A stretch of DNA of 64,000 bases from Bacteroidota bacterium (GCA_017303895.1 JAFLBF010000014.1:3504-67503), one strand, 5' to 3'. Positions 43,832 through 60,354 are shown, counted from the first letter of the stretch. Made by a program: numbers and translations. The notes: generated by a model from the letters alone, not told the origin.

Positions 43832-43851
43832 GATGGTATTATTATAGAAAA

Positions 43852-43880
43852 AGCCTGAGCATTTGCTCAGGCTTTTTGTT
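43852..43880. terminator. Bidirectional rho-independent terminator.
   Basis: The hairpin agcctgagcatttgctcaggct is followed by tttttgtttt. Confidence 0.8.
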
Positions 43881-45195: not shown

Positions 45196-45219
45196 GGTGA
45201 AATTTTATTTTATACTTCA

Positions 45220-46389
45220 TTATGTTTTCTTAGCAACCTTTTCTTTTTTCAATAATTTAGCTTTGTGTTCTTCAACTTTTTTCTTTTGTTCTTCTTTTTT
45301 CTTTTTTTGTTCTTCTGCTTTTTTCAATTCTTCCTCTTCTTCTTTTTGTTGTTGGTTAATTAGTTCCTTCAATTCATTATAAGATAAAGATTCAGATTCG
45401 GATTGATTATCATTTGAGTATTTGTTTAGTAAAATCTTTCCAAACTCAATTTTGGCAAGCCTTTTATCTTTAGTCGATTCAATAGCATTGAAAATTTCGA
45501 ATTGATTTTTTCGTGTTTTTAGATTATCAAAAAATAGTTGATAAACTTCCATAAAAGACTTGAATTGTGAGTTTGTTAAGCCATAGAAGAATAAATTTAT
45601 TTCTGATTTGTATTCTTGTATTCCTTTGTCAAGGATTACAGAAACAAACTCTATAGTCGACTTAGTAATATCATTTTCAAATGACGCGCGAATAGCGTCT
45701 GGAATAAATTTTGAAATGTCTTCTCTCAATTCTTCATCTCTTAATGCTTGGCTAAGGAAGTGTTGAGAGAAGACTATTTTATAATAATGTCCATAATTTC
45801 CTTCATGTTTATTGGGAAGATTTAAATATGCTTGTTTGATTTTCTGGAAATCTTCTTGCTGAAGCTCTCTCGATATCAATGTATCACATACATTTGAAAT
45901 ATCTTTTGGTACTTTTACTAGTCTATCAATAATGTGAACGGATTCCTCTCGCTTAATTTTAAGAAATAGATTGTAAATGTCACTTTGTATCAATTTATTT
46001 AATGATTCAACATCATCTTTTATTTTCTGATTTTTTGTAAGTAGTTCCTTGTTCTCCTCACCAATTTTTACTATTTTTCTTTCGATGTATGTAACATAGA
46101 ATCCAAGCAATATTGCCCCAATTCCAAATAATAGCCCAAATATTGTTAAGTTATAAGAAGCAGATTCAAGCTGATTAGATATACTACTGTTTGTTTGTTC
46201 ATACATCTTTTGTTGAAAATCAAGCTTATCATTAATTGTACTAATCTCGTTTTCTATATTTTTGTTGTTGAAATTTTGGAGAAGGTTTTCTACCTTGATT
46301 AGTCTAGATTTCCAAGATGTATCTTGTTTAGATTGAGAAAAAACTGTGGAATAAATAATGAGAAGTGTTACTGTGATGAATTTTTTCAT
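45220..46389 (-). CDS. Hypothetical membrane-anchored coiled-coil protein with a Lys/Glu-rich tail.
   Basis: It has a signal peptide and a mid-protein TM helix (LTIFGLLFGIGAILLGFYVTYI). The C-terminus is KEEEEELKKAEEQKKKKEEQKKKVEEHKAKLLKKEK. Confidence 0.5.
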   Translation of the reverse strand: MKKFITVTLLIIYSTVFSQSKQDTSWKSRLIKVENLLQNFNNKNIENEISTINDKLDFQQKMYEQTNSSISNQLESASYNLTIFGLLFGIGAILLGFYVTYIERKIVKIGEENKELLTKNQKIKDDVESLNKLIQSDIYNLFLKIKREESVHIIDRLVKVPKDISNVCDTLISRELQQEDFQKIKQAYLNLPNKHEGNYGHYYKIVFSQHFLSQALRDEELREDISKFIPDAIRASFENDITKSTIEFVSVILDKGIQEYKSEINLFFYGLTNSQFKSFMEVYQLFFDNLKTRKNQFEIFNAIESTKDKRLAKIEFGKILLNKYSNDNQSESESLSYNELKELINQQQKEEEEELKKAEEQKKKKEEQKKKVEEHKAKLLKKEKVAKKT

Positions 46390-46555
46390 TTTATTTTTTT
46401 ATTCAATTTTGGCATTTAACTTAATTGTAATCTAATACATGTAGTTTGTTTATGATAGAAACTTATCTTACAAATTTTACCAACTAAGGATGCATTTACC
46501 CAAATATAGCAAAATCAACCAAATAAAAAAGGGGAGGGGAGAGGTAAAAAACAAA

Positions 46556-46580
46556 AAAACCTTCCATTTGGAAGGCTTTT
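46556..46580 (-). terminator. Terminator downstream of tRNA-Asp (minus strand).
   Basis: The minus strand reads ccttccaaatggaagg followed by ttttttt. Confidence 0.7.
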
Positions 46581-46581
46581 G

Positions 46582-46655
46582 CGGTCCGGACGGGACTCGA
46601 ACCCGCGACCTCTGCCGTGACAGGGCAGCATTCTAACCAGCTGAACTACCGGACC
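46582..46655 (-). tRNA. tRNA-Asp (anticodon GTC).
   Basis: The reverse complement folds as a 74-nt cloverleaf: GGTCCGG acceptor stem, anticodon arm CTGCC-CTGTCAC-GGCAG, T-loop GGTTCGAGTCC and discriminator G. CCA is not encoded. Confidence 0.9.
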
Positions 46656-46766
46656 TAATTCTGTTAGAATTGGATTGCAAAAGTAGGGTAATTTTTGAAT
46701 TCAGCAAAAAAATAATGAAAAAAATGTGTTACCTAAAATCCGCAAGTCTCATTTTTTGATAAAAAA

Positions 46767-46811
46767 ACGCTCAAAATGCTTGATATTCAAGCTTGTGAGC
46801 GTTTATTTTTT
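46767..46811. terminator. Compound hairpin terminator (bidirectional).
   Basis: The outer stem is acgctca...tgagcgt and the inner stem gcttga-tat-tcaagc. T tracts follow on both strands. It sits after the minus-strand gene ending at 46824. Confidence 0.6.
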
Positions 46812-46823
46812 CGCTAATTATTT

Positions 46824-47006
46824 TTAAATATTTTTTTGAATTTCCATCTGTTCGAATGAATTCAGGATATCCGCCTTCGTTTCGGTAGGCAAATTCGATA
46901 ATATAGCTTCAATTTCTGCCCTTGAAAGGTAGTTTTTGCCTATTTCAAAAAGCTGTTCATCTGGCAATTGGTTTATTAATTCTTCAAATGTAATTTCTAC
47001 TGACAT
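46824..47006 (-). CDS. Small hypothetical protein (60 aa).
   Basis: It is an acidic ORF in the island and is followed by a terminator. No motif was recognised. Confidence 0.35.
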   Translation of the reverse strand: MSVEITFEELINQLPDEQLFEIGKNYLSRAEIEAILSNLPTETKADILNSFEQMEIQKNI

Positions 47007-47036
47007 GGTAATCTGAATTGTTTAATCCCAATGTGC

Positions 47037-47504
47037 TTATAACACACATTTTATTAAATTCATAAATCGAATGGCATCGCCTTTTTTAATTTCAACGTCC
47101 TTTTGGAGATCGCCATCTTTTGAATCTAGTGTAAACCGTTGTGATTGCACCTTGCTTTTCATTAGTTCCATTAAATCCGATTCTTTTATTGGAAATGAGC
47201 CATTGTTTTCTTCTAGAGTAATTATCTTACTATTTTCCAGTAAAAGAAGCATTTTAGAGCCTGATTTTATGGTTCTTCTAACATTAAATGATCCATCACA
47301 AACAAAAATTAACGAATATTCATTGTCTATTTTCTGAATACTTATAAATCCAACGATCTGGTTGGTTTCAAACAATTCTTCTGGTTTTGTCAATTTGGTT
47401 AATTTTCCAGTGAACTTGTCTACATCATTGGTTTTGTACTTACAATTTTGAGAAAAGGTAATAGTTGATAGCAATATCAATATTAAAGCGATTGAATTTT
47501 TCAT
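47037..47504 (-). CDS. Hypothetical secreted protein / lipoprotein.
   Basis: It has a signal peptide (ILILLSTITFSQNC). No motif was recognised. Confidence 0.45.
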   Translation of the reverse strand: MKNSIALILILLSTITFSQNCKYKTNDVDKFTGKLTKLTKPEELFETNQIVGFISIQKIDNEYSLIFVCDGSFNVRRTIKSGSKMLLLLENSKIITLEENNGSFPIKESDLMELMKSKVQSQRFTLDSKDGDLQKDVEIKKGDAIRFMNLIKCVL

Positions 47505-47523
47505 TTATGCTCTTGTTTTATTG

Positions 47524-47922
47524 TTAGTATAATTTCACCGTAGTGCATCCATTTGATGCTATTGTTACAGTTCCAGCCCAAGATAAACTTGTTCCTTGCT
47601 CGTAAGCAGTATAAGCATACGTTCCAGCAGGGGCAGTATATGTTACACAGCCACTTGCCCCACATGATGGAGTTCCTGAATAATTAACCGTTATAGTTCC
47701 CTCTGGCACTCCCTCTACATAAACGTCAACATTACCTAACCCGCTTGTTGTTAGATTCCAAAATGTTGCTTTCCCCTTGTAAGTACAAGTCCCATCATCT
47801 TTTTCTGCTGAAGAAGAGTAATTTGTTGCCGATACATCTGTGCAACCTGTTTCTTTTTTACAACCAATAGTAGCAAATCCTAATAGAATGGAGGCTACAA
47901 GCAATAGTGTTTTTGTTTTCAT
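47524..47922 (-). CDS. Small secreted Cys-rich, Gly/Thr-rich protein.
   Basis: It has a signal peptide plus the lipobox GC. Six Cys residues sit in a 110-aa mature region that is T/G/Y-rich (GTYAYTAYEQGTS). Confidence 0.45.
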   Translation of the reverse strand: MKTKTLLLVASILLGFATIGCKKETGCTDVSATNYSSSAEKDDGTCTYKGKATFWNLTTSGLGNVDVYVEGVPEGTITVNYSGTPSCGASGCVTYTAPAGTYAYTAYEQGTSLSWAGTVTIASNGCTTVKLY

Positions 47923-48038
47923 TTTTAAATTAGTTTAAAAGGTTAGTTTTTATTGACCGTATGGCTAAATTATGAATTATTTCTAAACCCGACAAATATG
48001 TCGTGTTCTTTTTGTTAACTCTTTAGCACTTTTGATAT

Positions 48039-48263
48039 GTGAAAAAGGCATACAAGCAAGAATTAAAGCAATTAGGAAAGAAAATAAAGGCGATTCGGTT
48101 ATCTCAAAAGATGACTCAGGAGGCTCTTGCTGATTTGTGCGAAATTGATGTTAGGACTATTCAGAGGATTGAGAAAGGAGAAAATGGAATAGGTATAAAT
48201 ATTTTGTTTGCAATTAGTGAAGCATTGAAAATTTCTTTGCCTGAATTTTTTAAAAAAGATTAA
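48039..48263 (+). CDS. XRE-family helix-turn-helix transcriptional regulator.
   Basis: MTQEALADLCEIDVRTIQRIEKGE is the canonical HTH_3 motif. It is 74 aa. Confidence 0.8.
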   Translation: MKKAYKQELKQLGKKIKAIRLSQKMTQEALADLCEIDVRTIQRIEKGENGIGINILFAISEALKISLPEFFKKD

Positions 48264-48304
48264 TTGCTTTTATTATAGCATTACCATAGTGCCCAGCAAA
48301 CATG

Positions 48305-49528
48305 TTAAAGAAGGTTCTTGTTATATTCAAGAGAATAGCCCAAAGAATCTGTCCCAGATATCCTTGTTTTGCTAATTATTTGTAATGATTCAGTTGAATG
48401 GATAGCATTGTCTTTGTTAATTTTAATTAGTTTAAAGGCAGAGTTATTTATATATTTCACAAGTAATTTGAATGTGACTTCTCCATCTATGTAATAATAC
48501 CCAGAACTACTGATCTCAATTTTTTCCTTTTTCATTACATTATCTTTTGCGTATGTCAATTCCCATGCCCCATAAAATATAATGGCTAATCTATTTAAGT
48601 TTTCTAATATTTCTTTATTTTGTTTGGATTTTTCTGTTTCAGAATTTACAATTATACCATCTTTTAATTCAATAATTTGACCTTCCAGATATTTCCCCCT
48701 CTTCTTTTGATTTAAATATGAATATTCAATAACTAGCTCTTTTACGGAAAATTTATTCGGATCAAATTTAAAAACCGAATTTTCTATTGCCAAGGGATCA
48801 CCATTACTAAATGCATTTTTAATGATAGACGTTACTTCAATATATTTATTATCAATTCCATAAACTGCATTCTCTATTTTAAAGGCTTTTTTTTCATTCT
48901 CAAAATCATTTAATTCCTTTTCAAGCGTTTTTATTTTTTCACTTTTTTCAAAAAGTTGTTTATCTAGTTGGCTGAATTTAATATTACTATCCTTAATTTC
49001 ATTTTCTTTTTTCTCCAAATCTTTCTTTAATGATGAATTTAGGGCAGCATTTGATTCTAATTTAATCTGCACTTCCTGCAAATCAGCTCTTTTTTGAGTT
49101 ACTTCTTCTTCAATTTTAATGTGTTTTCTTTCAAGCTTTTCATAATCCATTTTTGGAATCCAGTTGCCATCGTCAATTTTTTGAAGTAGTCGAATAGAAC
49201 CTTTATTAATGTATATATATAATCCTTTGCCAAAAGCATTAATCTTATTGAAAAGAATCATCATTATGAATCCCCAGAATAAAGCCCAGACTATTGTAGC
49301 ATAAAATCCTTTGAAACCAAATAGCCACGATAAACATGTAAATGAGTTTAGCTGCAAGTGAACCCAGTCAATTTTTTGTTGTAAACTGTAGTTGTCAGAA
49401 AAATTAAATAATCCAAAAAGGAGGGTTTTATTTGTAATAATCCATACAAAAATTACAGACCCAAAATACGGATTAAGCCTGTTATTAACATAATTACGCA
49501 ATTGATCTTTAACTTCGTCTAACTCCAT
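48305..49528 (-). CDS. Hypothetical membrane protein with a central coiled coil and a C-terminal globular domain.
   Basis: It has two or three N-terminal TM helices and a ~100-aa heptad-rich segment (KIEEEVTQKRADLQEVQIKLESN...). It is divergent from the XRE gene. Confidence 0.45.
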   Translation of the reverse strand: MELDEVKDQLRNYVNNRLNPYFGSVIFVWIITNKTLLFGLFNFSDNYSLQQKIDWVHLQLNSFTCLSWLFGFKGFYATIVWALFWGFIMMILFNKINAFGKGLYIYINKGSIRLLQKIDDGNWIPKMDYEKLERKHIKIEEEVTQKRADLQEVQIKLESNAALNSSLKKDLEKKENEIKDSNIKFSQLDKQLFEKSEKIKTLEKELNDFENEKKAFKIENAVYGIDNKYIEVTSIIKNAFSNGDPLAIENSVFKFDPNKFSVKELVIEYSYLNQKKRGKYLEGQIIELKDGIIVNSETEKSKQNKEILENLNRLAIIFYGAWELTYAKDNVMKKEKIEISSSGYYYIDGEVTFKLLVKYINNSAFKLIKINKDNAIHSTESLQIISKTRISGTDSLGYSLEYNKNLL

Positions 49529-49639
49529 TTTAGAATATGAAATTTATATTAAGCATATAAAATAAAGACAATTTTATCAATTCTTCTAAAAATAGTTTTT
49601 TTTAAGAGAAAACAGATGTTTTTATCGAAATGTATCAGA

Positions 49640-50002
49640 TTAGGCTATGTGATAATGAATGTGAATTGCCAAGTATAGTGTATTTAATGGGTCAAAAACA
49701 CTCTTTACAGGTGGGCTAATTTTTTCTTCTTCATTATAGTATCTATTTATTTCATCAACCAATCTTATCCCCTCTTCATATGAGTTGATTTTAATTTTAG
49801 TGCAATGTGTTGCTAGTTTTTTATAAATGTTATTTTGTGCTTCAAAATACTCATCTGGACTATCCGTAATAACTACTCCCCAGCATTCAGATTTTATGGA
49901 AATTGGTGTATTTGTATTATGACTTCCATCTTTACTCCATCGAATAATAACTCGCCCTTTTCTCTCATTTTCAATTTGATTTATTACATCTATTCCATTC
50001 AT
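49640..50002 (-). CDS. Hypothetical protein (120 aa).
   Basis: It is an ORF in an AT-rich island. No motif was recognised. Confidence 0.35.
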   Translation of the reverse strand: MNGIDVINQIENERKGRVIIRWSKDGSHNTNTPISIKSECWGVVITDSPDEYFEAQNNIYKKLATHCTKIKINSYEEGIRLVDEINRYYNEEEKISPPVKSVFDPLNTLYLAIHIHYHIA

Positions 50003-50171
50003 TTTAGTACTATTTTAGGTTTATTAATTATGATAGTATAATTTTTTTTTAGTTATTTTAGCAAGAAAGATACCAACCTCTTTTCTAAGACTATGTGGCG
50101 CTCTTTATTACATTAAAATGAGAATGTCAGAAATATTTATGACACTCTGACGTTTTGTGTAATATAAAACA

Positions 50172-50387
50172 TCAATCTAATATATGAATCATTACTGAAT
50201 TTTTCGGCAGCTCAAAACTAGGAGTATTTCCGTTTAATGAGCATGGAATTCCATCCTCTCCAGTACAGCCATAAGTATCTTCTGCAAAAAGGTATACAAT
50301 TTCACCTTTAAGAAAATCACGTTTTAACCAACGACATTCTTGCTTGGTAACATCTCGAATTAATTTTAGTTTGATGAGTTGTTTCAT
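50172..50387 (-). CDS. Hypothetical small protein (71 aa). It abuts the transposase stop and may lie within the IS.
   Basis: Its start at 50387 is immediately adjacent to the transposase stop at 50393. It has four Cys residues. Confidence 0.3.
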   Translation of the reverse strand: MKQLIKLKLIRDVTKQECRWLKRDFLKGEIVYLFAEDTYGCTGEDGIPCSLNGNTPSFELPKNSVMIHILD

Positions 50388-50392
50388 TGTTT

Positions 50393-51688
50393 TTAGTTTA
50401 TAGATGGTGGTCTTGCATACAATGGAGAATAATCTCGATCAGAATTGATGCACGCGACCTTTTCATTGTTTTCAAAAGTCCATTCAAGTGAAACGGTTAT
50501 AAAGTTAAATATGAAATTTTTAAGCTTATAATTCGATTTAACAAAATGTAGTTTTTTACTGAAGTGACTTAGTAGGTAATTATAAATAATGTTGCCTATT
50601 GCTCCCATAATCATGAATACCGTATTCTGATTTAAGAAAGAGAAAGGCAGTCGTTTCCAGTTCCAATCATTTAATAGGGTTGTGAAATTTAACTCAATAG
50701 CACCTCGTTGGTTGTAAAATGATATAACCTCTTGGTTAGACATTTTTCTGTTGTTCGTAATAATTGCTCTATAAGTATAGTAGTCGTTTGAATATTTATT
50801 TAGCTTAGTTTGTCTTGAATCCCTTAATTTAGAGACAACAACTCTGTAAGTATTTTCATAGAGATCGTATTCGAACGAATAAGCTTGGCTCGGCATGTCG
50901 CCAATTATAACATTTTCCCAGCCATCTTCACTTTCTAAAGCTTTTCTGAAAATAGCATTGCTGTTTTGTGCGCGAATAAAAAAATCAATTCCCTTTTGAT
51001 TTAAGTACAGTAAAACATTTTTTGAATATGCAGCACTGTCACTTCTAAACCGCTTTATTTTAATTCCTCTCTTTTCAACTATATTAATAGATCTTTCCAG
51101 TGTTTCTAATAGTTGGTAGTTTGCCACAGAATTACCATTTCTGTTTTCAATATAGACAGGTGTTTTCCCTATAAATGCAACTGATGGAAAATAGCCAATA
51201 ACCTCGCTGTACGTTTTTCTGCTGTCATACTTTTCACAAGGGGTTATAACGTTGTCATAATCTAAGGTTGCATTCGAATTTTTATTTAATTGCCCAAGTT
51301 TTAACGCTGTATGAAGCAGTAGCTCGTTTAAAGGTATATTGAGATTTAACTCGTGATCTACTGTTTCTTTGTAATGCTTAGTTACTGGTGTTGCAAAAGA
51401 TTTAAATATGTCAGCAATTCTATCTGGAGAAGGATGTCTATTATTAGGAATTTCCGAAAAATAATGCTTTAGCTGCTTGACATCCTCCAGCCGTTCACTC
51501 CCGCACAATACACTGTATACCCATGATAATATTACATCGCTGTAGCTGTATTTGGCTTGTTTTACTCTTTTTCCTAAGAAATTATCAATTAAACGAGGGA
51601 TTCCTTTTCTCTGCAATTCTTCCATGCAGAAAAGAATACCTCCATAAGGATTGGAAATACGGTTGATATGTCGTATTTTTGTCTTCAC
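50393..51688 (-). CDS. IS1380-family DDE transposase.
   Basis: Family-typical blocks are SVLCGSERLEDVKQL (compare ISEcp1 MLCG...LERLK), FRSDSAAYS (compare FRMDSGYF) and YNQRGAIELNF...LSHF (compare YEKRGNAENYIKE...YNLF). It is 431 aa. Confidence 0.6.
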   Translation of the reverse strand: MKTKIRHINRISNPYGGILFCMEELQRKGIPRLIDNFLGKRVKQAKYSYSDVILSWVYSVLCGSERLEDVKQLKHYFSEIPNNRHPSPDRIADIFKSFATPVTKHYKETVDHELNLNIPLNELLLHTALKLGQLNKNSNATLDYDNVITPCEKYDSRKTYSEVIGYFPSVAFIGKTPVYIENRNGNSVANYQLLETLERSINIVEKRGIKIKRFRSDSAAYSKNVLLYLNQKGIDFFIRAQNSNAIFRKALESEDGWENVIIGDMPSQAYSFEYDLYENTYRVVVSKLRDSRQTKLNKYSNDYYTYRAIITNNRKMSNQEVISFYNQRGAIELNFTTLLNDWNWKRLPFSFLNQNTVFMIMGAIGNIIYNYLLSHFSKKLHFVKSNYKLKNFIFNFITVSLEWTFENNEKVACINSDRDYSPLYARPPSIN

Positions 51689-51904
51689 AATTGCTTAGAG
51701 CATTGGGAATAGCTTTCGGGTTCATGTTTGCGAGACGGAAAACCCTAAAGCTATTTTTCTTTTACATCCTTCTATTTTCGTGCCAAAATATATGTAATTA
51801 ATTGATTTTCAGTTATTTGAATGTCGGTGAGTGTCGAAAAGTCTCCCGAACAAATTGATTTTATTCAGATATAGAAAATGTTCAATTTTTGCTATTTTTT
51901 TATA

Positions 51905-51986
51905 GCTTGATTAATTATTTTTGCAAAAATTCGTATAAAAAAGCTTGAATTAGCTTGAATTAGCTTGAAAATAGCTTGATAAAACT
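51905..51986. repeat. Cluster of agcttga(a/t) iterons.
   Basis: The sequence tagcttgatt ... aagcttgaatt agcttgaatt agcttgaaaat agcttgataaaa gives five copies of agcttga in 80 bp between the IS and the next gene. Confidence 0.6.
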
Positions 51987-52132
51987 TTTATATGTTAGAT
52001 AATATAAATTTAGAAGTGGCTCAACTTGAACAAAAATTAACAATGAGATTAGCCAAAATAGTTATAAAATAAAGCTGTTAATATTTATATTGACATTAAT
52101 GACAATTTATATTTCAAAATCTATTACATTTG

Positions 52133-52534
52133 ATGCGAGCAATTTCCAAAATTAATATGGTAGAGAACGGAACTGAGCAACTTGCCGTTGTGAAAGTAAT
52201 ACAAAGTATGTTAGCTTCACACTACACTGTTGTTTCAAATATAGCCCAAGAACAGCATCATATCGGAGGCTTTTTCCCAGATATTATAGTAATGGATAAA
52301 GATAACGGTAATGCATTATTTGCAATTGAAGTAAGGAAAAATGGGCAAGTAAGCCATTGTATTCAGCAATGGAAATCTGTAACTCCACATTTACCAGCCA
52401 CATTGTATATTGTTGTTCCAGAAGCAGAACTTGAGAATGCACAAGCAATTGCAGCAGTAAACGGTTTAAAAGCTAAATTTGGAACATATAAAATGAAATC
52501 CGATGGGGGAGTAGCTAATGTAAATTTCTTATAA
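52133..52534 (+). CDS. Hypothetical protein, possibly with a PD-(D/E)xK-like fold.
   Basis: FFPDIIVMDKDNGNALFAIEVRKNG resembles a PD...E.(R)K nuclease core. The start may instead be at 52157 (MVENG), because a TACATTTG -7-like box sits at 52125-52132. Confidence 0.35.
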   Translation: MRAISKINMVENGTEQLAVVKVIQSMLASHYTVVSNIAQEQHHIGGFFPDIIVMDKDNGNALFAIEVRKNGQVSHCIQQWKSVTPHLPATLYIVVPEAELENAQAIAAVNGLKAKFGTYKMKSDGGVANVNFL

Positions 52535-52545
52535 GCCACAGATAG

Positions 52546-53016
52546 ATGAATCCCGAAACCCAAAACGTAATACTCGGAGCTGTCCTTGGTGCCCTTTTTG
52601 CAGTAGTTGGTGGAGGAGTAGGTAAAAAAATAGAAATGTGGCTGAATCTTCGACAAGAAAGAAGTTTTATAAAAAAAGGATTGATTGATGAACTTGACGA
52701 AATCATTACTGTAATAGGCAAGCTAAAAGAAACATTTGAACAAACATCTCAAACCCCAAAATCTTATATAATTGATTTAAAGTCAAATATAGAGGCTTAT
52801 AACCACCATAGACATAGACTTTTTGTGCTTCAAGGAGACGATTTAAGGCATAAAATTATTCAATTTTACAGAAAGCTTAAAGATTCACTTGAAGATGCAG
52901 AAGGGAAAGTCGGCACACTTGCAACATCGCCTCAGGCTAAACAGCAACAAAAGGATATTGTCTCCAAAATGGAAAAGTTCGAACAGGACGCAAAAGAATT
53001 AAAGAAGCTCCTTTAG
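52546..53016 (+). CDS. Hypothetical membrane-anchored coiled-coil protein.
   Basis: It has an N-terminal TM helix (VILGAVLGALFAVVGGGVG) and a helical, charged remainder. It lies 12 bp after the preceding gene. Confidence 0.4.
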   Translation: MNPETQNVILGAVLGALFAVVGGGVGKKIEMWLNLRQERSFIKKGLIDELDEIITVIGKLKETFEQTSQTPKSYIIDLKSNIEAYNHHRHRLFVLQGDDLRHKIIQFYRKLKDSLEDAEGKVGTLATSPQAKQQQKDIVSKMEKFEQDAKELKKLL

Positions 53017-53045
53017 TTTTTTATATGATACTATTCATAATTTAA

Positions 53046-53906
53046 TTATTGTGAATTTTTATCGTCTAGCCTGATAACTCCTAAATTTTCAGGAAAAATT
53101 AAGTATTGATCCATGTTTAATGGCATTTTTTCAAAAATAAACCTGTGAGTTGATTCCGAAGAATCTATAATTAATCCATTTTGGATCTGTCTTAATTCAT
53201 TGTTTTTAACTTCAGAATTTTTATGATGCAGATATAGGCAATAGTCTCTTGTTAGTGGAAAATATAATTCAGCTTCTAAAGGAATTAAAAATTCATAATA
53301 TCCGTTATTTTCAATGATAATAGGATTGTCACTTGTAACCCATCCATAGTTATTATAGTCTTTTAGAATGCAGTAGTCAAATTTTTGTAATATATAATTG
53401 AAATGCCGCATCGACATTAGCATCAAATAGTTTAGTCTATCATCAGGTGCAATATTATCAACATGGTAAATAGCACTTTTTTGTGAGTCATTTATAAAAA
53501 AAGCGATTTCTTTAAGTAGCTTTTCTTTAGTCTCAATATTTGTATAGTAATTGTTAATTCTAGTCCTCATCATTTCTGTTCTACATATTGTGTTAGCAAC
53601 AAATTGCTTTAATAGAATTTCAGATTTATGGCTTAGTGATTCTTTTAAATATAGCTCATCAATTATTTTGTTATAGTATGTTTCTAACTGACCATTTAAA
53701 TTTTCAAAAACACTTGGATTAATGGAGGGAATGGTAGACAATTGAAAGAAATGTGGCTTATTTAAAAAGCTAGCTACATTTTTTAAGGCTGTTCTAGGAA
53801 GCCCTTTTTCCCAAACACATAGCTTTAATTGTCCGTTGTAATCGAACGCAAATTTCTTTAGATATACTTCTCCTAATATGTGATGCCTTCTTTTTGATTT
53901 TTGCAT
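53046..53906 (-). CDS. DUF4238 domain protein.
   Basis: The N-terminal RRHHILGEVYLKKF matches the DUF4238 HH.vP..YL..F signature. It is 286 aa. Confidence 0.5.
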   Translation of the reverse strand: MQKSKRRHHILGEVYLKKFAFDYNGQLKLCVWEKGLPRTALKNVASFLNKPHFFQLSTIPSINPSVFENLNGQLETYYNKIIDELYLKESLSHKSEILLKQFVANTICRTEMMRTRINNYYTNIETKEKLLKEIAFFINDSQKSAIYHVDNIAPDDRLNYLMLMSMRHFNYILQKFDYCILKDYNNYGWVTSDNPIIIENNGYYEFLIPLEAELYFPLTRDYCLYLHHKNSEVKNNELRQIQNGLIIDSSESTHRFIFEKMPLNMDQYLIFPENLGVIRLDDKNSQ

Positions 53907-53911
53907 AGATT

Positions 53912-54748
53912 TTAGATTAAGTCAATTATATCTTGTATTTTTTGAATTGAAGTTGGCAGGTATTTATTATCATGTAAAAAGTGGCGAGTTTGTGAATATG
54001 CAGTCCTTATGTTTTTAGTTTGATAGCTTACCCCATCTCTTTTTACGAAAAATTTTTCGATAATGCTGGGGTAGTCATACCCTTTATATTGGGGTTTGTT
54101 ATTCGATAATTTTATGACAAGAAAAACTAATTGTCTTGTTGTGCCAAGCCATTTTATTTTAGAGATATCTAGGAAATTATTCGTTTGAAAAATATAAATA
54201 TTATTTGAGTCAGCATTTAGAAGCTTTAGTTCAACAAGTTTATTAATTATTAATGCTAATTGCTCATGATTAATATGTTCAAACCAATTGCTTTTAAAAC
54301 ATTTGTTTTCCGAATTAACAAACACTCTTTCTCCTTCTACCCATTTCATTATCCTATCCAATCTTTCTGTATTATCAAATGGGCTAGAAGCTTGGACGTA
54401 TTCATAGACATAACCTTCTATGAATGAAGGAAAGTATCCTGCCCCCTTATATTGGGACTTCTGATAGCTTAAAAACGATGTAATTCTGGGTGTTGGGTAT
54501 GCTATAAGTGTAATAGCAAGAAATCGAAGGTAATCTGGATTATCTTGCCTAATTATGATTGAAATAGAAGCTTTGTAATGCTCTTTTAGATTTATCTTGT
54601 TTCTACGACAGTATAAATACAAGGTATCAACCAATTTTTGTCCAAAAGATTTCTGCTTAGCATTAACTTTATTGGAATTGATTACTTGCTCTATATTCTT
54701 CAGTGTTTTAACTAAATCTATATCATATGGTTCACTGTAGATTTGCAT
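53912..54748 (-). CDS. RteC-like regulatory protein (Bacteroidota mobile-element associated).
   Basis: The C-terminal region (KWLGTTRQLVFLVIKL...IIEKFFVKRDGVSYQT..IRTAYSQTRHF) resembles the RteC winged-helix region. It is recalled from memory, so the call is modest. Confidence 0.3.
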   Translation of the reverse strand: MQIYSEPYDIDLVKTLKNIEQVINSNKVNAKQKSFGQKLVDTLYLYCRRNKINLKEHYKASISIIIRQDNPDYLRFLAITLIAYPTPRITSFLSYQKSQYKGAGYFPSFIEGYVYEYVQASSPFDNTERLDRIMKWVEGERVFVNSENKCFKSNWFEHINHEQLALIINKLVELKLLNADSNNIYIFQTNNFLDISKIKWLGTTRQLVFLVIKLSNNKPQYKGYDYPSIIEKFFVKRDGVSYQTKNIRTAYSQTRHFLHDNKYLPTSIQKIQDIIDLI

Positions 54749-54846
54749 TTATTATTAATCATATTTTAGAAAAATAGGGATATATTTGCGATTATTAAAA
54801 GCCCCTGTCATTCGTCAGCATTGTATTTTTGGATAAAATGTCGAAA

Positions 54847-54870
54847 AATTTTGACAATATTGTCAAAATT
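54847..54870. promoter_or_regulatory. 24-bp perfect palindrome, an operator candidate.
   Basis: aattttgacaatattgtcaaaatt is exactly self-complementary. It lies in the divergent intergenic region between 54748 and 55023. Confidence 0.5.
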
Positions 54871-55022
54871 AAGTACATTTGTGGCATAATTGTTATGTAG
54901 ATATGTAACATATATGTAATAATTAGTGTATAAGTAAAGCGGTCAATACCATTTTTTAGCGAAATTGTTATTATAAATTGCTATTTGTATTTTATATTAT
55001 TAAGTACTTATAACACAAAAAA

Positions 55023-55181
55023 ATGAGAACAATAGAGATTAAAACCCAAGTAAAAGATCCTAAAGTGATAGAAATCATTAAGGATGCAAAGGCTAAAAAG
55101 CAAGCTATCCACGCTCTTTTAGTTAGCGGAGTTCCTATATCTGAAATCCCAGAAGAATTAAAAATTTCTTTACAAAAATAG
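55023..55181 (+). CDS. Small ORF (52 aa) not in the supplied track.
   Basis: ATG at 55023 through TAG at 55181 gives MRTIEIKTQVKDPKVIEIIKDAKAKKQAIHALLVSGVPISEIPEELKISLQK. It sits 3 bp before the next ORF. Confidence 0.3.
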   Translation: MRTIEIKTQVKDPKVIEIIKDAKAKKQAIHALLVSGVPISEIPEELKISLQK

Positions 55182-55184
55182 GAA

Positions 55185-55670
55185 ATGTATCATCGTTACG
55201 AGTATTCTGTAACTGATGGGGATGTCCATTCATATAAATTTACTGATTATCCTGTAACATTAATACTGGCGCCAGCTCATTACACATTAAGTGGAATTGA
55301 GCCATCTCTTAACTTATATAGCATAGACCTCCTTCGGACAGGAGATAAGATGAATTGTAATTGTGGAGAAACAGTATGTAAAATTTTAGTCGATTTTGTT
55401 AATAATAATAAGAAATGTTCTTTGGGCTTTTATCCTAGTTATAAAGATAATAAGGAAGACGCAAGGTGCTGCTTGTTTAATAAATGGTTAACTAAATATG
55501 TTTTAGATGAAAATATTACAACAATAAAGAATGTTTTAACTTTTCCGACTGAAACAGGAAAAACTAAAGAGGAGCTAACCCTTCAAGTTTTTATGCACGA
55601 TGAGTATGAATATGGAGACTTGATGCTATCGAATTTAAATGCTATTTCAAAAACAATTGCATCTAAATAG
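55185..55670 (+). CDS. Hypothetical Cys-containing protein (161 aa).
   Basis: It has the Cys cluster NCNCGETVC...KCS...RCC. No family was recognised. Confidence 0.4.
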   Translation: MYHRYEYSVTDGDVHSYKFTDYPVTLILAPAHYTLSGIEPSLNLYSIDLLRTGDKMNCNCGETVCKILVDFVNNNKKCSLGFYPSYKDNKEDARCCLFNKWLTKYVLDENITTIKNVLTFPTETGKTKEELTLQVFMHDEYEYGDLMLSNLNAISKTIASK

Positions 55671-55775
55671 TTTTTCGTTAATAATCCCAAAGGATGCTGT
55701 TTTAGAAAGAGGAATCAGTTATAGGTAGAATTTGTGAAAAATACATGTATTATTCCTTATCAATTATATTAATTG

Positions 55776-55783
55776 TAACTTTG
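55776..55783 (+). promoter_or_regulatory. Bacteroidota-type -7 promoter box (TAACTTTG).
   Basis: It matches TAnnTTTG and lies about 22 to 40 nt upstream of candidate start codons at 55805 and 55823. Confidence 0.4.
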
Positions 55784-55804
55784 TCTATAGTGCTTAATTG
55801 AAAA

Positions 55805-56251
55805 GTGATAAATATTAAAATTATGACACCCGATATTTTTATACCATTCTCTGTTAGATTTTCTTTGAAGATATTTACGCTTCCTAGTGTTGGAAAATTG
55901 CTAGGGAATTTGTTATATAAGATTAAAGACCAATATGTTTTTTTGAATTTTGCTTTAAAGGGGATAAAGGACGAATTAATAAAAAACAAAATTCAAATGA
56001 ACGGGAAGGAGATTAAAAAAATTACTAGTCTTAAAAAACTATTAAGTGTAGTAGGTTCCTCTATAAGTGAGAATGAAAGTCAAAATTTGTTATCAATAAA
56101 GGAAAATGTTATGTCTTCTATTGCTACCATTGATGAAATTCTTTTAATTATTAAAGAAAAAGAAGAACATAAAGAGTTGAAGCAAAATTTATTTAACTAT
56201 TCTGAGCTTGCAATAAATTCTCATTTGACAAAGTATAGTAAAGCAATATGA
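55805..56251 (+). CDS. Hypothetical protein; putative cognate partner (antitoxin?) of the downstream MazF-like gene.
   Basis: It is 148 aa and its stop overlaps the start of the next gene (ATGA at 56248-56251). It bears no resemblance to MazE, AbrB or RHH antitoxins. Confidence 0.4.
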   Translation: MINIKIMTPDIFIPFSVRFSLKIFTLPSVGKLLGNLLYKIKDQYVFLNFALKGIKDELIKNKIQMNGKEIKKITSLKKLLSVVGSSISENESQNLLSIKENVMSSIATIDEILLIIKEKEEHKELKQNLFNYSELAINSHLTKYSKAI

Positions 56252-56607
56252 AGATTAGCAGAAGAGATGTTGTTGAGGTCGTATTCGCTTCTAATACAAA
56301 AGCTAGTCATCCTGTTATTGTTCTTTCACCAGAAGAGATTAATTCAGAAGAAGAGAGCTTTTTGGGAGTTATGATTACAGATTCACTATATTTTGATGTA
56401 AACAATGATTTCAGCTTTCCACTAGACGATTCAATGTTTGTAAAACCTTTAAAGGAAAAGAGTTCAAAAGCGAGACTTTATTTGGTTAATTTTTTGCCTA
56501 ATAGTTCTGTCGTTAATAAGGCTAAAATTAATGAGATGAAAATAGATGCTTTTAAGCAGTTAATAAAAGACTTAAATTTAAAAGTTTTTGATATTAATAT
56601 TTCTTGA
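56248..56607 (+). CDS. MazF/PemK-like toxin-fold protein.
   Basis: MKISRRDVVEVVFASNTKASHPVIVLSPEEIN...GVMITD parallels the PemK/MazF pattern R.GDIv.v.F.p..G.E...RPalVlSp...N.....vivcPiT. Confidence 0.5.
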   Translation: MKISRRDVVEVVFASNTKASHPVIVLSPEEINSEEESFLGVMITDSLYFDVNNDFSFPLDDSMFVKPLKEKSSKARLYLVNFLPNSSVVNKAKINEMKIDAFKQLIKDLNLKVFDINIS

Positions 56608-56654
56608 TTTATCTGCACCATCCCACCTTTCTTTTTTATTTTTATTTCTAATAA

Positions 56655-57629
56655 ATGGACGAAAAAACATTTCATAATTTATCGGATGATGAATTAATTC
56701 ATGGGATGAAATTATCGTTAGAAAATTCGAACAAGCATTTTAAAGCAGCTATTTCAATTGAAAAGGAAGAGCTTTATGGTATTGCTAATTCTCATTTGAT
56801 ATTGAGTTCAGAAGAAGGGATCAAGGCACTCTTATTCCTAACCAAATTTTTAAAAATTGAACTTGAGAATATAGATATCAGTCCGTTTTTCAAGAAGCAT
56901 GCCCCAAAACATAAAGTCGCAAAAGAGGTATATTGGGAATTTAAGTATTACAACCAAATTATGGACTCTGTACTGAAGGAGTTAGCGAGTAAAAAAGATA
57001 AGTACATAACTTTTAAAAATGGAATCCCCTCCCTTGATAATGAAAAATTAAAACAAGATTATGTAAGGGGGCTAGCATTAAATAAAAGGCAATTATTGGT
57101 AAGTCATATTAGAAATAATTGGGAGGTTGAAGAACAAGAACAGAAGTGGTGGAATAAAGCCGATTATTATAAAAATAGAGGTTTCTACGTTAATTTTTAT
57201 AATAGGAAATGGGAATCACCAGATGATATTACTAAAGAAATATATTTTGAAAGTAAAAAAATAGTGACAACAATTGTTGAGTTTATGAATGCATGTTGCA
57301 CAAGACAAGATTTAAATGATATACAAGAAACTTTACCCAGCTTACAGATGCCGACAATAGAACTTCATAGCAAAATATTACCTAGTGGTCATAAATTAGA
57401 TCATATTATTATCACGGAGATTCCAAATGCAGATGGAAGTGATATTGATTATAAAATTGAATATGTGGATTGGACTGATATTGATAAGAAAAGAATTCAT
57501 GTAGGAACTTGTTGTTTGACTTTAGGCAGTATATCTTTTGAAAAGTCAGAACCTGTTGGTATTCCAGTTGGTGCAATTAAATTAGCCTGCGAATGGGTTG
57601 AGCAAAGGATGGGAGAAGAGAGAGTATAG
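56655..57629 (+). CDS. HEPN-domain (AbiV-like) protein with an extra C-terminal domain.
   Basis: The N-terminal helical region is HEPN/AbiV-like (LENSNKHFKAAISIEKEELYGIANSHLILSSEEGIKALLF). The R-x5-H motif is present (KRQLLVSH). It is 324 aa. Confidence 0.35.
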   Translation: MDEKTFHNLSDDELIHGMKLSLENSNKHFKAAISIEKEELYGIANSHLILSSEEGIKALLFLTKFLKIELENIDISPFFKKHAPKHKVAKEVYWEFKYYNQIMDSVLKELASKKDKYITFKNGIPSLDNEKLKQDYVRGLALNKRQLLVSHIRNNWEVEEQEQKWWNKADYYKNRGFYVNFYNRKWESPDDITKEIYFESKKIVTTIVEFMNACCTRQDLNDIQETLPSLQMPTIELHSKILPSGHKLDHIIITEIPNADGSDIDYKIEYVDWTDIDKKRIHVGTCCLTLGSISFEKSEPVGIPVGAIKLACEWVEQRMGEERV

Positions 57630-57652
57630 TTTGTAATTCAATATTATCAATG

Positions 57653-57794
57653 ATTTTAGATTAAAAATTATAATTATGCCAAATTTTGGCAATTAAACAG
57701 CCTGAATTTTACTAGAGATTAAAAATATTGGATTTTTAATTCCAAAACGGGTGATAAAATTAGGTTTTTAGAAGTATTCGGATTTTAGGTGTTT
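57653..57794 (+). repeat. Copy A of a ~142-bp imperfect direct repeat.
   Basis: It aligns with 59406-59549. The first ~75 nt are about 85% identical, the middle diverges and the 3' end shares cggattttaggtgtt. It contains the palindrome tgccaaattttggca. Confidence 0.7.
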
Positions 57795-57863
57795 TGCATC
57801 AAAAATGATGTAAAATAAGCTTTACTTAAATAATTTGGGGAAACCTCATGACACAACAACTCT

Positions 57864-58811
57864 ATGCAACCAGATCCTCTTGACTTTTGGAAAAAATATG
57901 AGTTAGTAAGTAGCTCCCAAACTTATTCTATGGAAAAGAGTAAAAGTAAAATTTGTAGATATTGCGATAAGACAGATAAAGAAACAACTTTTACACAAGA
58001 CACTCATTTACTTCCAGAACTTATAGGCGAGAATAACATCCTTACTTTTGATGAATGTGACAAATGCAACAAATTATTCAGCGATTATGAAAGTAGTTTT
58101 TCAATTTTTATACGACCGTATATTACTCTTATTGGCGTAAAGGGTAAAAAGAAGATTCCTAAGTTTCAGTCTCGGACAATTAATAGAAATGAAGAAACAC
58201 GAACAACTCTCATACACAAAAAAGACAATCAGAAAGAGTTGCATATTCAATCTATTGACGATTATTCGTTAAATACAAAAGATAAAACATTTGACATCGT
58301 TTTTAGAAAACCACCTTTTATCCCTTTGAAAGTGTACAAAACTCTTTTGAAAATAGGATTGTCACTATTACCGATAAAATTTGACAAATTCAACAAAAAT
58401 TCATTTGCTTGGCTTACTAATAGGCAAGATGATTTGACATTTATTCCCCAAGGATTTATAACATCTTTAAAAAGAAGATCTTTCACTGAGCCTTCTGCTT
58501 ATTTATATAGAGCAAAAAAAATATTTATAGGCAAAGAGGAGTTTCCAGAATATATTCTAATTCTCTGTTTTGCAAATCAAATCTTTCAAATTTTCCTGCC
58601 ATTTTCTGACGAGTTTAAAAAGATTCATTTTGAACAACGACAACTTGTTTTAAATCTATTTCCAGCCTTTGTATTTGATAAAATCAAAATGTCACAAATC
58701 GTTGAAATAAAGGCATATGACTTTAGTGTTACAACATCAGTAACTGAGAATCACAAAATTTCATTCAGTTATCAAGATGCTCAAATAAATATTCCCGAGA
58801 AAAATAGCTAA
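57864..58811 (+). CDS. Protein with an N-terminal HNH-nuclease-like zinc-finger motif and an unknown C-terminal domain.
   Basis: CRYCDK...DTHLLPELIGENNILTFDECDKCN fits the HNH pattern C.C...(D)H..P...GG...N....C.CN. About 260 aa of unrecognised sequence follow. Confidence 0.45.
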   Translation: MQPDPLDFWKKYELVSSSQTYSMEKSKSKICRYCDKTDKETTFTQDTHLLPELIGENNILTFDECDKCNKLFSDYESSFSIFIRPYITLIGVKGKKKIPKFQSRTINRNEETRTTLIHKKDNQKELHIQSIDDYSLNTKDKTFDIVFRKPPFIPLKVYKTLLKIGLSLLPIKFDKFNKNSFAWLTNRQDDLTFIPQGFITSLKRRSFTEPSAYLYRAKKIFIGKEEFPEYILILCFANQIFQIFLPFSDEFKKIHFEQRQLVLNLFPAFVFDKIKMSQIVEIKAYDFSVTTSVTENHKISFSYQDAQINIPEKNS

Positions 58812-58825
58812 TCAACAAATAATTA

Positions 58826-59323
58826 ATGAAACATTTTATACTTTATAACCAAATTAAAGACAAGTCAATTGATTCACTTCTGAAAAGAATAGGAAGAAAC
58901 GAGAAAAAAGTCATTTGTGATTTAAAATTCATAGATTTAATTTATGGAAAACAATCAATGAATGGCGTTTATGTGATATTTGACCCATCTGACAAACCCG
59001 CTTATGTTGGAAAAACAGGAAGCAGAGCAATTTTGGAGAGAATGGCAGCTCATTATGATCTTAGACAAAATGCGTTCATGAATTCGTTTTTATGCGCTTT
59101 GGCAGGATTTAAAAAAAGTCGAAGTGGACACCAAGCAACAGATAAAGAAATAAAACAGGCTTACGAGGAATCATTGAAATATAAAATGTTATTTATTGAG
59201 ATTCCAGATAAAGCGATTATAAATAGGCTAGAGAGAATAATTTCTAAGGAATTAAACCCTCCACTTAATAGCATAAAAGGGAAAAATGAATACGATTTAA
59301 ATACAAAAATCAAAAATATTTAA
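58826..59323 (+). CDS. GIY-YIG nuclease domain protein (165 aa).
   Basis: GVYVIFDPSDKPAYVGKTGSRAILER provides the GIY...YIG motif plus Arg. A downstream segment (LFIEIPDKAIINRLERIISKELNPPLN) supplies the Glu and Asn. Confidence 0.55.
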   Translation: MKHFILYNQIKDKSIDSLLKRIGRNEKKVICDLKFIDLIYGKQSMNGVYVIFDPSDKPAYVGKTGSRAILERMAAHYDLRQNAFMNSFLCALAGFKKSRSGHQATDKEIKQAYEESLKYKMLFIEIPDKAIINRLERIISKELNPPLNSIKGKNEYDLNTKIKNI

Positions 59324-59405
59324 AACTAAAAAAATTGAGTGCAAATAGGTTGGAAAAATATAAGTAAAAAGAATAAAAAAAGTCTACAATCCAATGTTAT
59401 CAGTC

Positions 59406-59549
59406 ATTTTAGATTAAAAATTATAATCATGCCAAATTTTGGCAAAAAAACAGCCTAAATCTTACTAAAGTTTTAAAACTAAGAATTTTTAACGTCCGAA
59501 ATGGCTGTTAATATTGAATTTTGAGAGACCTGCGGATTTTAGGTGTTAT
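59406..59549 (+). repeat. Copy B of the ~142-bp imperfect direct repeat.
   Basis: See copy A. It contains atgccaaattttggcaa and ends cggattttaggtgtt. It is located upstream of the gene starting at 59614. Confidence 0.7.
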
Positions 59550-59613
59550 TTATTTGTTTTGCTTGAAAATCAGTCCTTTATTTTGCCTTATTTTTACAAA
59601 AAAATTAAATCTC

Positions 59614-60354
59614 ATGAATTTTGCTTTTGTCGTTATCGGTCTTGTACTCGGTGGTTTGGGTACCCTCATCTGCCTCGTTTTTACTATTATCGCCCTTAGT
59701 GGCGGAAAAACTAAGAATGCTGCTTCCTGGGGAATCGGCTTTGCCGTGTCCATCTCCTTGCTCATTTTTTCTATCGTTAGCCTGGTCAACAGCATTTCCG
59801 ATAAAGTAAAAACCGGTGTGGAATGGTTGGAACAGCATGAAAACCAAACCTATGATGATATGAATGTGGACTATCAGGCACAGGACAGAGCCAACATGAT
59901 CGATACCCTGAAAGCTTATACCAATGAAATGTATGCCGATAAAGTGCCTGCTGATTTTTATTCATCTGCAAAAGTAGAGATCGATTCCAACGGTATCATG
60001 GTGGTTCCTTTCTTGTATCCGTACTCCTTAAGAATAAACACTTACACCAGCCTGGCGGATATTGTGGTGGATGCCAAAGACAGCATGTTTGTACAAAATG
60101 TATCGCAATTCTCCTTCGACCAAAACTTTGTGATCGCCCGCATCGACAATGCACAATCCAAAGATCTGTTGAAAAAAGGTCATGCCGAAATTGAATACCT
60201 GCTATTTGATATGCGTACCGGCAATTATGAAAATGCCAATAATATGGAAATGCTCATGGACTTTGCCAACCGCATTGGTTTTGTGGGTCCCAAAGATTTA
60301 AGATACATTTCAGAAGATTATACCGGCTGGTTTGATTATGAGCAATATGATTAA
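59614..60354 (+). CDS. Hypothetical protein with an N-terminal double-TM anchor.
   Basis: Two TM helices (FAFVVIGLVLGGLGTLICLVFTIIAL, WGIGFAVSISLLIFSIVSLV) precede a ~180-aa soluble domain. The start was set at the ATG at 59614. Confidence 0.45.
   Translation: MNFAFVVIGLVLGGLGTLICLVFTIIALSGGKTKNAASWGIGFAVSISLLIFSIVSLVNSISDKVKTGVEWLEQHENQTYDDMNVDYQAQDRANMIDTLKAYTNEMYADKVPADFYSSAKVEIDSNGIMVVPFLYPYSLRINTYTSLADIVVDAKDSMFVQNVSQFSFDQNFVIARIDNAQSKDLLKKGHAEIEYLLFDMRTGNYENANNMEMLMDFANRIGFVGPKDLRYISEDYTGWFDYEQYD

Follow-up and report, generated by a model that had tools for sequence, protein, structure and literature searches.

Which mechanism brought an AT-rich block of about 13 kb, without any integrase gene, to a site next to a tRNA-Asp gene? 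The question arises from a stretch of 64,000 nucleotides of a Bacteroidota bacterium (GCA_017303895.1, JAFLBF010000014.1:3504-67503), hereafter called the window; all coordinates are those of the whole 64-kb window, 1-based from its first letter, and L-numbers denote comparison loci or contigs. An initial annotation of this DNA had described an accessory, defense-type island at 46582-59550, counted an IS1380 transposase among its passengers, and proposed either a decayed integrative element or a variable hotspot assembled by other means. We arrive at a different answer: with a probability of roughly 0.85, the block 46732-59543 represents one IS1380-family transposon of 12,812 bp with passenger genes to either side of its transposase, and it is most likely this transposase that drives the island.

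The block is set apart by its composition. The G+C content is 0.302 in 46732-59543 versus 0.387 in the remaining window, where even the lowest stretch of 12.8 kb never falls below 0.370. In 1-kb windows the mean is 0.302 inside (standard deviation, sd, 0.019) and 0.387 outside (sd 0.023), so that composition is not uniform along the window and the AT-rich island of the initial annotation is borne out. A sliding profile shows a sharp trough at about 45.0-59.5 kb, with values of 0.28-0.34 versus 0.36-0.43 elsewhere. The housekeeping genes assumed left of 46.4 kb are therefore only partly what borders the island, as the AT-rich zone begins at about 45.0 kb and 45196-46580 is a separate variable segment. 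The island edges had been placed approximately right; the true ends lie 150 bp and 7 bp away (2 bp for the latter if the duplicated target is included). The block measures 12,812 bp (46727-59548 with the duplicated target) and contains 18 open reading frames (ORFs) with 83% of the sequence coding.

Relatives without the block allowed us to define its ends to the base pair. Scanning a genome collection with the flanking dacB protein yielded two informative metagenome-assembled genomes, L002 (dacB 94% identical at the protein level, flanking DNA about 93% identical) and L003 (dacB protein 75% identical). In both of them tRNA-Asp directly adjoins the 277-aa/CPBP/dacB genes without the segment in between, so the gene order is not conserved in all relatives and the accessory status of the block holds. 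By BLASTN, window 46547-46731 corresponds to L002 8982-8798 and window 59543-64000 to L002 8803-4349, and L003 gave the same break points; the junction alignments to both empty sites break at 46731/46732 and 59543/59544. The window thus carries an insertion of about 12.8 kb 5' of tRNA-Asp, and the empty site is the ancestral state. The features at the junctions are the following:

46581 to 46655, minus strand: tRNA-Asp(GTC), the only tRNA found by ARAGORN
46727 to 46731, no strand assigned: left target-site duplication TGTTA, from the junction alignment
46732 to 46750, plus strand: terminal inverted repeat CCTAAAATCCGCAAGTCTC, IRR side (downstream of the transposase gene)
46766 to 46803, minus strand: G+C-rich hairpin between A and T runs, terminator-like, inside the left end and downstream of a 60-aa ORF, read from the sequence
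59381 to 59524, minus strand: subterminal sequence of the outer right end, including at 59381-59513 the outer copy of a repeat of about 130 nt
59525 to 59543, minus strand: terminal inverted repeat CCTAAAATCCGCAGGTCTC, IRL side (upstream of the transposase gene)
59544 to 59548, no strand assigned: right target-site duplication TGTTA, from the junction alignment

The block begins with CCTAAAATCCGCAAGTCTC and ends in the reverse complement of CCTAAAATCCGCAGGTCTC. These terminal inverted repeats are 19 bp long (CCTAAAATCCGCA[A/G]GTCTC), match at 18 of 19 positions and both start with CCTAAAATCC. A mismatch-tolerant search for the 19-mer across the 64 kb returned two matches, the block ends themselves (0 expected by chance), and a repeat finder independently reported the same inverted pair (46732-46750 and 59525-59543). 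The pentamer TGTTA is present once at the orthologous empty site of L002, while the sequence of the more distant L003 has diverged there. Target duplications of 5 bp next to terminal inverted repeats characterize DDE transposition and not site-specific recombination, from which it follows that the entire 12,812 bp came as one unit. We regard the boundaries, the repeats, the duplication and the empty sites as established. No match was obtained in a megablast of the whole element against plasmids, and an exact search for the repeat in viral contigs returned none. The flanking CPBP protein, looked up as an exact match, gave no record, probably owing to the start codon chosen.

Both mechanisms proposed at the outset are at odds with these borders. 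A decayed integrative or mobilisable element which targeted the tRNA gene and lost its integrase would explain the tRNA neighbor, the AT-richness, the XRE regulator and the RteC-like gene perceived earlier. As initially described, the 3' end of the tRNA gene (minus strand) faces away from the island. The insertion lies on the 5' side of this gene, in the spacer to the divergent 277-aa gene and 76 bp before the tRNA starts, and not at the 3' end. Also in line with the initial annotation, no tRNA-derived repeat is present at the island borders and a recombinase domain is absent from all 18 ORFs of the block (Pfam and NCBIfam); the borders consist of the inverted repeats, and RteC itself is unsupported. 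With inverted repeats and a 5-bp duplication as the signature of a DDE transposon, an integrative origin is contradicted by the data and retains next to no probability. Piecemeal assembly of a variable defense hotspot by tRNA-Asp, through recombination and small insertions of which one left the repeats, would be in keeping with a heterogeneous cargo and with the variation between relatives on both sides of the tRNA gene, where a segment with a 389-aa ORF is replaced in L002 and a hipA-like module of L002 is bracketed by a 48-bp repeat including the tRNA 3' end. We consider it highly improbable all the same, as the whole 12.8 kb lies exactly within one repeat pair (18/19) and one perfect 5-bp duplication, the break points of the two empty sites coincide to the base pair, and G+C is uniform across the block (sd 0.019).

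The transposase gene and its immediate neighborhood comprise these features:

50172 to 50387, minus strand: 71-aa ORF in the orientation of the transposase gene, whose stop codon precedes its start by 6 bp; phrog_27034 (E=5.6e-14), function unassigned
50393 to 51688, minus strand: IS1380-family DDE transposase, 431 aa, full length (NCBIfam NF033539, Pfam DDE_Tnp_1_4)
51709 to 51754, minus strand: conserved leader hairpin just upstream of the transposase start codon, supported by covariation across elements
51904 to 51979, no strand assigned: AGCTTGA in five copies, of which four recur every 10-11 bp, within the gap of 441 bp preceding the transposase gene, read from the sequence

This is the only transposase gene in the block. 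Its product scores 181.5 bits against NF033539, the IS1380 equivalog model (cut-off 180), and 63.6 bits against DDE_Tnp_1_4 (E=1.3e-17, cut-off 34.7). Nine homologues align with it over the full length, and the columns invariant among the ten sequences are all conserved in it. The gene is located 3.6 kb and 7.9 kb from the two block ends, and no inverted repeats were found immediately around it that would delimit a compact insertion sequence (IS) inside the island. The leader hairpin (ATAGCTTTAGGG...CCCGAAAGCTAT) comprises 12 pairs, 4 of which show compensatory changes across six elements, with equivalents in L006, L007, L009, L090 and L092; it is probably part of a leader controlling transposase expression. 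Farther upstream, the AGCTTGA copies possibly represent a putative regulator-binding array. A tRNA gene is found at the position of this array in related elements.

Published elements of the IS1380 family have ends starting with CC and 5-bp duplications, for example ISArsp10 (ends CCTTGATCCACCGAT, duplication CTTAG; PMC6305408) and IS1247 (1,672 bp; PMC3281130). The element of the window shares the transposase model, the CC-starting ends and the 5-bp duplication with the family. The compact single-ORF organization is not found here, and with 12,812 bp and 18 ORFs the element is a cargo-bearing derivative, not an insertion sequence in the strict sense.

To assign the repeats to this transposase we turned to its homologues. 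The closest ones are 53-61% identical, and the contigs of six of these were examined; a metagenome scan with an alignment of the transposase clade added 80 more distant relatives. Every complete element around a close homologue (53-61%) is bounded on both sides by the same repeat, in variants of CCTAAAATCCGC[A/G][A/G]GT.., and by a perfect 5-bp duplication of its own:

L006, 1255-9131: 7,877 bp, duplication AAAAT
L007, 8475-15308: 6,834 bp, duplication ATAGA
L009, 8343-15854: 7,512 bp, duplication ATAGA
L090, 7776-16308: 8,533 bp, duplication CTAAT
L023 (transposase 44% identical), 951-4530: 3,580 bp, duplication ATCTA

Contig ends cut the loci L093 (at least 9.1 kb) and L092, each of which retains one matching end. 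About 40 distant homologues (35-45% identity) among the 80 metagenome relatives belong to compact elements of 1.55-1.79 kb with the end consensus CCT[A/T]AAATCCGCA[A/G]GT, several of them with perfect 5-bp duplications. Transposase identities are 53-67% within the cargo group and at most 48% to the compact relatives and L023. Because relatives are bracketed by the same repeats, the island ends are authentic ends of this IS1380-family branch. These ends remained near-constant while the transposases diverged, and the carriage of cargo is common to the nearest relatives of the window element. We count the link between the transposase clade and these repeats as established. Related elements are inserted at four further sites, all distinct and each flanked by a duplication of its own, which provides indirect evidence of mobility beside the empty sites of L002 and L003, and all these elements are G+C-poorer than their flanks.

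The comparison also bears on whether the internal transposase is a mere passenger, as initially assumed. The block could be a non-autonomous element with IS1380-type ends that was moved in trans, its own transposase being a passenger or inactive. The distance of the gene from both ends and the lack of adjacent repeats are compatible with this, and compact relatives with the same repeat consensus could supply the enzyme. However, the combination of internal transposase, same repeats and 5-bp duplication recurs in five other elements, the relatives sitting between these repeats in every complete element examined. Moreover, the repeats are near-identical despite the divergence of the transposases (53-67%), as co-evolution of enzyme and ends predicts, and the gene is full length, keeps all invariant columns and has a conserved structured leader. 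Mobilization in trans is therefore unlikely, and the internal transposase is presumably active and acts on the block ends.

As we infer the transposition chemistry, the DDE transposase (50393-51688, minus strand) would bind both 19-bp terminal inverted repeats and transfer the DNA they enclose, as a single unit, to AT-rich targets of 5 bp, which become duplicated. In the lineage of the window the element would have inserted into the intergenic spacer upstream of tRNA-Asp after the split from the lineage of L002, and its cargo may benefit the host or stabilise the element.

The right end of the element is present in two copies, with two nuclease-like genes lying between them:

57628 to 57789, minus strand: degenerate inner version of the right end, with about 130 nt of subterminal sequence and then CCTAAAATCCGAATACTTC
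57864 to 58811, plus strand: 315-aa protein resembling HNH_5 nucleases (26.9 bits, slightly under the cut-off of 27.5; phrog_26663)
58826 to 59323, plus strand: 165-aa protein with weak similarity to GIY-YIG nucleases (Pfam GIY_YIG_2, E=4e-4, below cut-off)

The inner subterminal copy is 82-88% identical to 59381-59513 and located about 1.75 kb inside the right end. Its terminal repeat CCTAAAATCCGAATACTTC retains the first 11 bases and has decayed in the remainder, the outer repeat being intact, and the HNH and GIY-YIG genes occupy exactly the interval between inner and outer ends. As the current target duplication flanks the outer end, the latest move used the outer end. This arrangement suggests that the element grew at least once by end capture, adding the HNH/GIY-YIG module: an older element ending at 57789 would have come to adjoin the end of a related element and adopted this outer end, thereby enclosing the two nuclease genes and leaving its former end to decay. 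The process resembles the end-skipping of ISEcp1 and ISPme1 (PMC9330008), except that the end taken over here is a true end of the family and is located upstream of the transposase.

The resemblance raises the question whether the island is itself a transposition unit (TMo) of the ISEcp1/ISPme1 type, formed when a compact IS1380 element passed over its own end in favor of a chance look-alike farther away and captured adjacent chromosomal DNA in one step. Such capture is known for members of the family (PMC9330008; PMC3281130), the 5-bp duplication surrounds the whole unit, and the two right ends record at least one change of the end in use. In contrast to what this origin implies, there is no compact IS with its own two repeats at either edge, and the transposase has cargo to its left and right. 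The two ends are authentic (18/19) and found throughout the clade, unlike weak surrogates, and the cargo has a G+C content 8 points below that of the host and is thus not local chromosomal DNA. We consider a one-step TMo very unlikely, and hold to a transposon with internal cargo and two genuine ends.

Known TMos and this transposon nevertheless have in common that an IS1380-family enzyme moves extra genes, that a 5-bp duplication surrounds the unit, and that the end in use shifts outward (PMC9330008). In TMos, one edge is formed by an intact compact IS and the 3' side by a weak surrogate end, whereas the island has neither; it carries cargo on both sides, possesses two authentic ends and a clade-stable architecture, and its duplicated end is on the 5' (IRL) side. 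The compact insertion sequences of the family (IS1380, IS1247, ISArsp10 and IS942 and IS612 of Bacteroides) share the family transposase, the CC ends and the 5-bp duplication, but measure 1.5-2 kb instead of 12.8 kb; in the island there are 17 further ORFs, and the transposase is central, kilobases from both ends. The passenger-gene insertion sequences ISArsp9 and ISArsp14 (13-17.5 kb, 11-12 passenger genes; PMC6305408) likewise have one transposase, one repeat pair and a comparable size, although their transposase belongs to the ISNCY and not to the IS1380 family. Tn7-like transposons with defense cargo (Benler et al., bioRxiv 10.1101/2021.08.23.457393) resemble the island in having base-pair-defined ends, a variable, defense-rich cargo and often a location near tRNA or other conserved genes. 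They rely on the multi-protein TnsABC(D/E) machinery and target attachment sites, whereas the island has a single DDE transposase, AT-rich 5-bp targets and no evident site specificity. A composite transposon was considered and rejected, as there is one transposase gene only, together with two terminal repeats and one decayed inner end. In the part of the literature that was searched, ISfinder not included, we found no IS1380-family elements with internal cargo, which is no proof of absence.

Between the related elements the transposase is the only clearly shared gene. A small XRE gene is present in the window element and three relatives; the window copy is 31-37% identical and differs in position and orientation. 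A Y_Y_Y histidine kinase is encoded together with a LytTR regulator in L090 and L093, and a SocA/Panacea-domain protein in L009. The elements of L007 and L009, whose transposases are 67% identical, reside in different genomes at the same target ATAGA beside ssb and have largely different cargo, which reflects either an old insertion with in-place cargo turnover or the repeated use of one site.

In four related cargo elements we found tRNA genes within the repeats, 200-400 nt upstream of the transposase and on the same strand: L006 4543-4632, L007 9711-9798 (equal to L008), L090 9634-9707 (equal to L091) and L023 1620-1692. The Rfam tRNA models score 46-61 bits on these genes. The tRNAs of L006 and L007 have Ser-like bodies with a long variable arm, anticodons TAT (Ile) and GAA (Phe), and compensatory changes in their acceptor stems, read by eye from the sequences; the anticodon is CTA, amber-reading, in L090 and ACT in L023. 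Thus 4 of the 9 relatives checked carry such a gene, which is absent from the window element, L009, L092, L093 and about 55 compact or more distant relatives. The element-borne genes may encode mis-decoding or suppressor tRNAs as cargo.

Taken further, the island would be the largest element seen of an undescribed IS1380-family clade from environmental Bacteroidota, in which a minimal IS turned into stable cargo transposons of 3.6-12.8 kb with cargo on both sides. These would grow by way of the outer end of a neighboring related element and ferry toxin and nuclease genes, two-component systems and, in 4 of 9 relatives, non-canonical tRNA genes. We offer this wider reading tentatively and give it somewhat less than an even chance.

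Several points weigh against the proposed transposon and its history. The element is visible as a single copy in the 64-kb window, and named IS1380 members, IS942 and IS612 among them, share only 30-35% identity with its transposase. A length of 12.8 kb with 18 ORFs and a central transposase is atypical of a family whose described members have 1.5-2 kb and one ORF, and some of the cargo could have entered after insertion. Growth by end capture is deduced from one duplicated end only. The decayed inner end is followed by TGTTT (57790-57794), the outer end by TGTTA (59544-59548); this 4-nt match of TGTT past both end copies could be due to chance, to a target preference, or could be the trace of a second insertion at the same target. 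As for the defense cargo, PADLOC recognized no defense system among all island proteins and returned generic helix-turn-helix (HTH) matches and a weak UzuA match only.

If the transposon is correctly identified, the IS1380 family, known for minimal insertion sequences, can become a sizeable gene carrier, and an integrase-less island has received a mechanistic answer resolved to the base pair. Many integrase-less islands of Bacteroidota may be DDE cargo transposons that go unrecognized, as annotation pipelines label the transposase a stray IS. The family is of clinical relevance through ISEcp1, whose end-skipping leads to the capture of resistance genes; a natural clade in which internal cargo is stable, together with the fossil of an end switch, would add a further route to gene vehicles in this family. 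The conserved ends of 18-19 bp offer a simple search key for finding and delimiting such elements and for cataloguing their cargo.

Beside the HNH_5 and GIY-YIG genes and the ORF downstream of the transposase, the cargo of about 17 passenger genes on both sides of the transposase consists of:

46824 to 47006, minus strand: 60-aa ORF, no family match
47037 to 47504, minus strand: 155-aa ORF with a signal-peptide-like N-terminus, no family match
47524 to 47922, minus strand: 132-aa ORF with a lipoprotein-like N-terminus, no family match
48039 to 48263, plus strand: XRE-type HTH regulator of 74 aa, divergent from the 407-aa gene (Pfam HTH_3, E=1.3e-14)
48305 to 49528, minus strand: 407-aa protein with hydrophobic N-terminal stretches and a coiled-coil, weak coiled-coil matches only
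49640 to 50002, minus strand: 120-aa ORF, no family match
52130 to 53016, plus strand: two ORFs of 134 aa and 156 aa, no significant family match
53046 to 53906, minus strand: DUF4238 protein, 286 aa (Pfam PF14022, E=1.2e-20)
53912 to 54748, minus strand: all-helical protein of 278 aa, formerly called RteC-like (AlphaFold model, phmmer)
55185 to 55670, plus strand: 161-aa ORF with a weak DUF6169 match (E=0.0013, below cut-off)
55805 to 56607, plus strand: toxin-antitoxin-like pair, a 148-aa ORF overlapping by 4 bp with a PemK/MazF-like protein of 119 aa
56248 to 56607, plus strand: the PemK/MazF-like gene of this pair (Pfam PemK_toxin, 25.3 bits, cut-off 23.1)
56655 to 57629, plus strand: AbiV-like HEPN protein, 324 aa (Pfam HEPN_AbiV, E=4.3e-17)

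Pfam and NCBIfam agree with the initial annotation on the XRE, IS1380, DUF4238, MazF-like, AbiV-like, HNH and, weakly, GIY-YIG genes; the RteC-like call has no support. The 278-aa protein has no supporting match in Pfam, NCBIfam or the PDB, and RteC was matched neither by it nor by the 34 relatives scanned, at permissive thresholds either. An exhaustive phmmer search found 124 relatives of this protein, mostly without a Pfam domain and one with DUF6617, while a word-indexed homologue search returned only the protein itself. In NCBI, this protein and the HNH protein have 100% matches in a metagenome-assembled "Bacteroidetes bacterium" (J0L87_12845 and J0L87_12875, respectively; contig of 82,896 bp). 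The AlphaFold model of the 278-aa protein is confident and all-helical with two domains (pLDDT 88.5), and the PDB contains no match by sequence, nor by fold (E<=0.001). The C-terminus resembles an ORF of about 300 aa upstream of the transposase in L007. The protein is accordingly a member of an uncharacterized family. The 407-aa protein has a homologue with 38% identity in the element of L006.

Domains of abortive infection, toxins and nucleases are enriched in the cargo: AbiV and PemK/MazF score above their cut-offs and HNH_5 0.6 bits below, joined by a weak GIY-YIG and by DUF4238. The AbiV-like protein reaches 37.6 bits against TIGR04498 (cut-off 27) and has no PADLOC match. Against PHROGs the island proteins matched two families of unassigned function and gave otherwise generic HTH matches only. 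The designation as defense-type therefore stands at the level of domains (AbiV, MazF, nucleases) and for part of the cargo of this element, but it describes neither a property of the family nor a recognized system, and any defense role of the cargo is presumptive. HNH and GIY-YIG had been regarded as a pair. Homologues of the HNH protein (70-76% identity) occur elsewhere alone or with other partners, beside tyrosine integrases and without GIY-YIG, and nucleotide similarity covers the HNH gene only, for which reason we rejected a conserved two-gene system. Its distribution makes the HNH_5 gene appear to travel between mobile elements as a single-gene module. In L095-L099, HNH_5 homologues lie directly beside tyrosine integrases, with NB-ARC, AAA_15, CoiA-nuclease and TrwC relaxase genes as neighbors.

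An Rfam search of 44.9-59.7 kb returned tRNA-Asp alone. Between this tRNA gene and the insertion point we noticed a motif (TTTG, 19 nt, TACTTTTG), read by eye against the published consensus, which we take to be promoter-like and of the Bacteroidota type. The segment 45196-46580 (G+C 0.279) lies outside the transposon on the 3' side of the tRNA gene and contains an ORF of 389 aa that lacks a family match; its product combines a signal peptide, a coiled-coil and a tail rich in lysine. L002 has different genes there (8949-15230), namely a hipA-like kinase module of 1.84 kb followed by about 4.4 kb of other genes. The module is bracketed by a 48-bp direct repeat that includes the last 13 nt of tRNA-Asp and the terminator. 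This is an att-like, integrase-less signature of the sort sought in the initial annotation, but it belongs to a different genome and to the opposite side of the tRNA gene. An integrase candidate beside tRNA-Asp in L002, a 421-aa ORF, proved to be HipA-like. With the transposon on one side and the att-like module of L002 on the other, the neighborhood of tRNA-Asp is variable on both sides, by different mechanisms.

On the right side, the mechanically called ORF of the 277-aa membrane protein (59521-60354) starts at a TTG within the right repeat of the transposon. Conservation of this gene with L002 and L003 starts at the ATG at 59614, likely the true start, which would leave the transposon upstream of the gene and outside its coding sequence. 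Farther left, a gene for a PD40/Tricorn_N beta-propeller lipoprotein (43881-44948) has normal G+C content and is absent from L002. In the latter, the sequences matching window 43843-43882 and 44984-45213 are adjacent, and synteny ends left of there.

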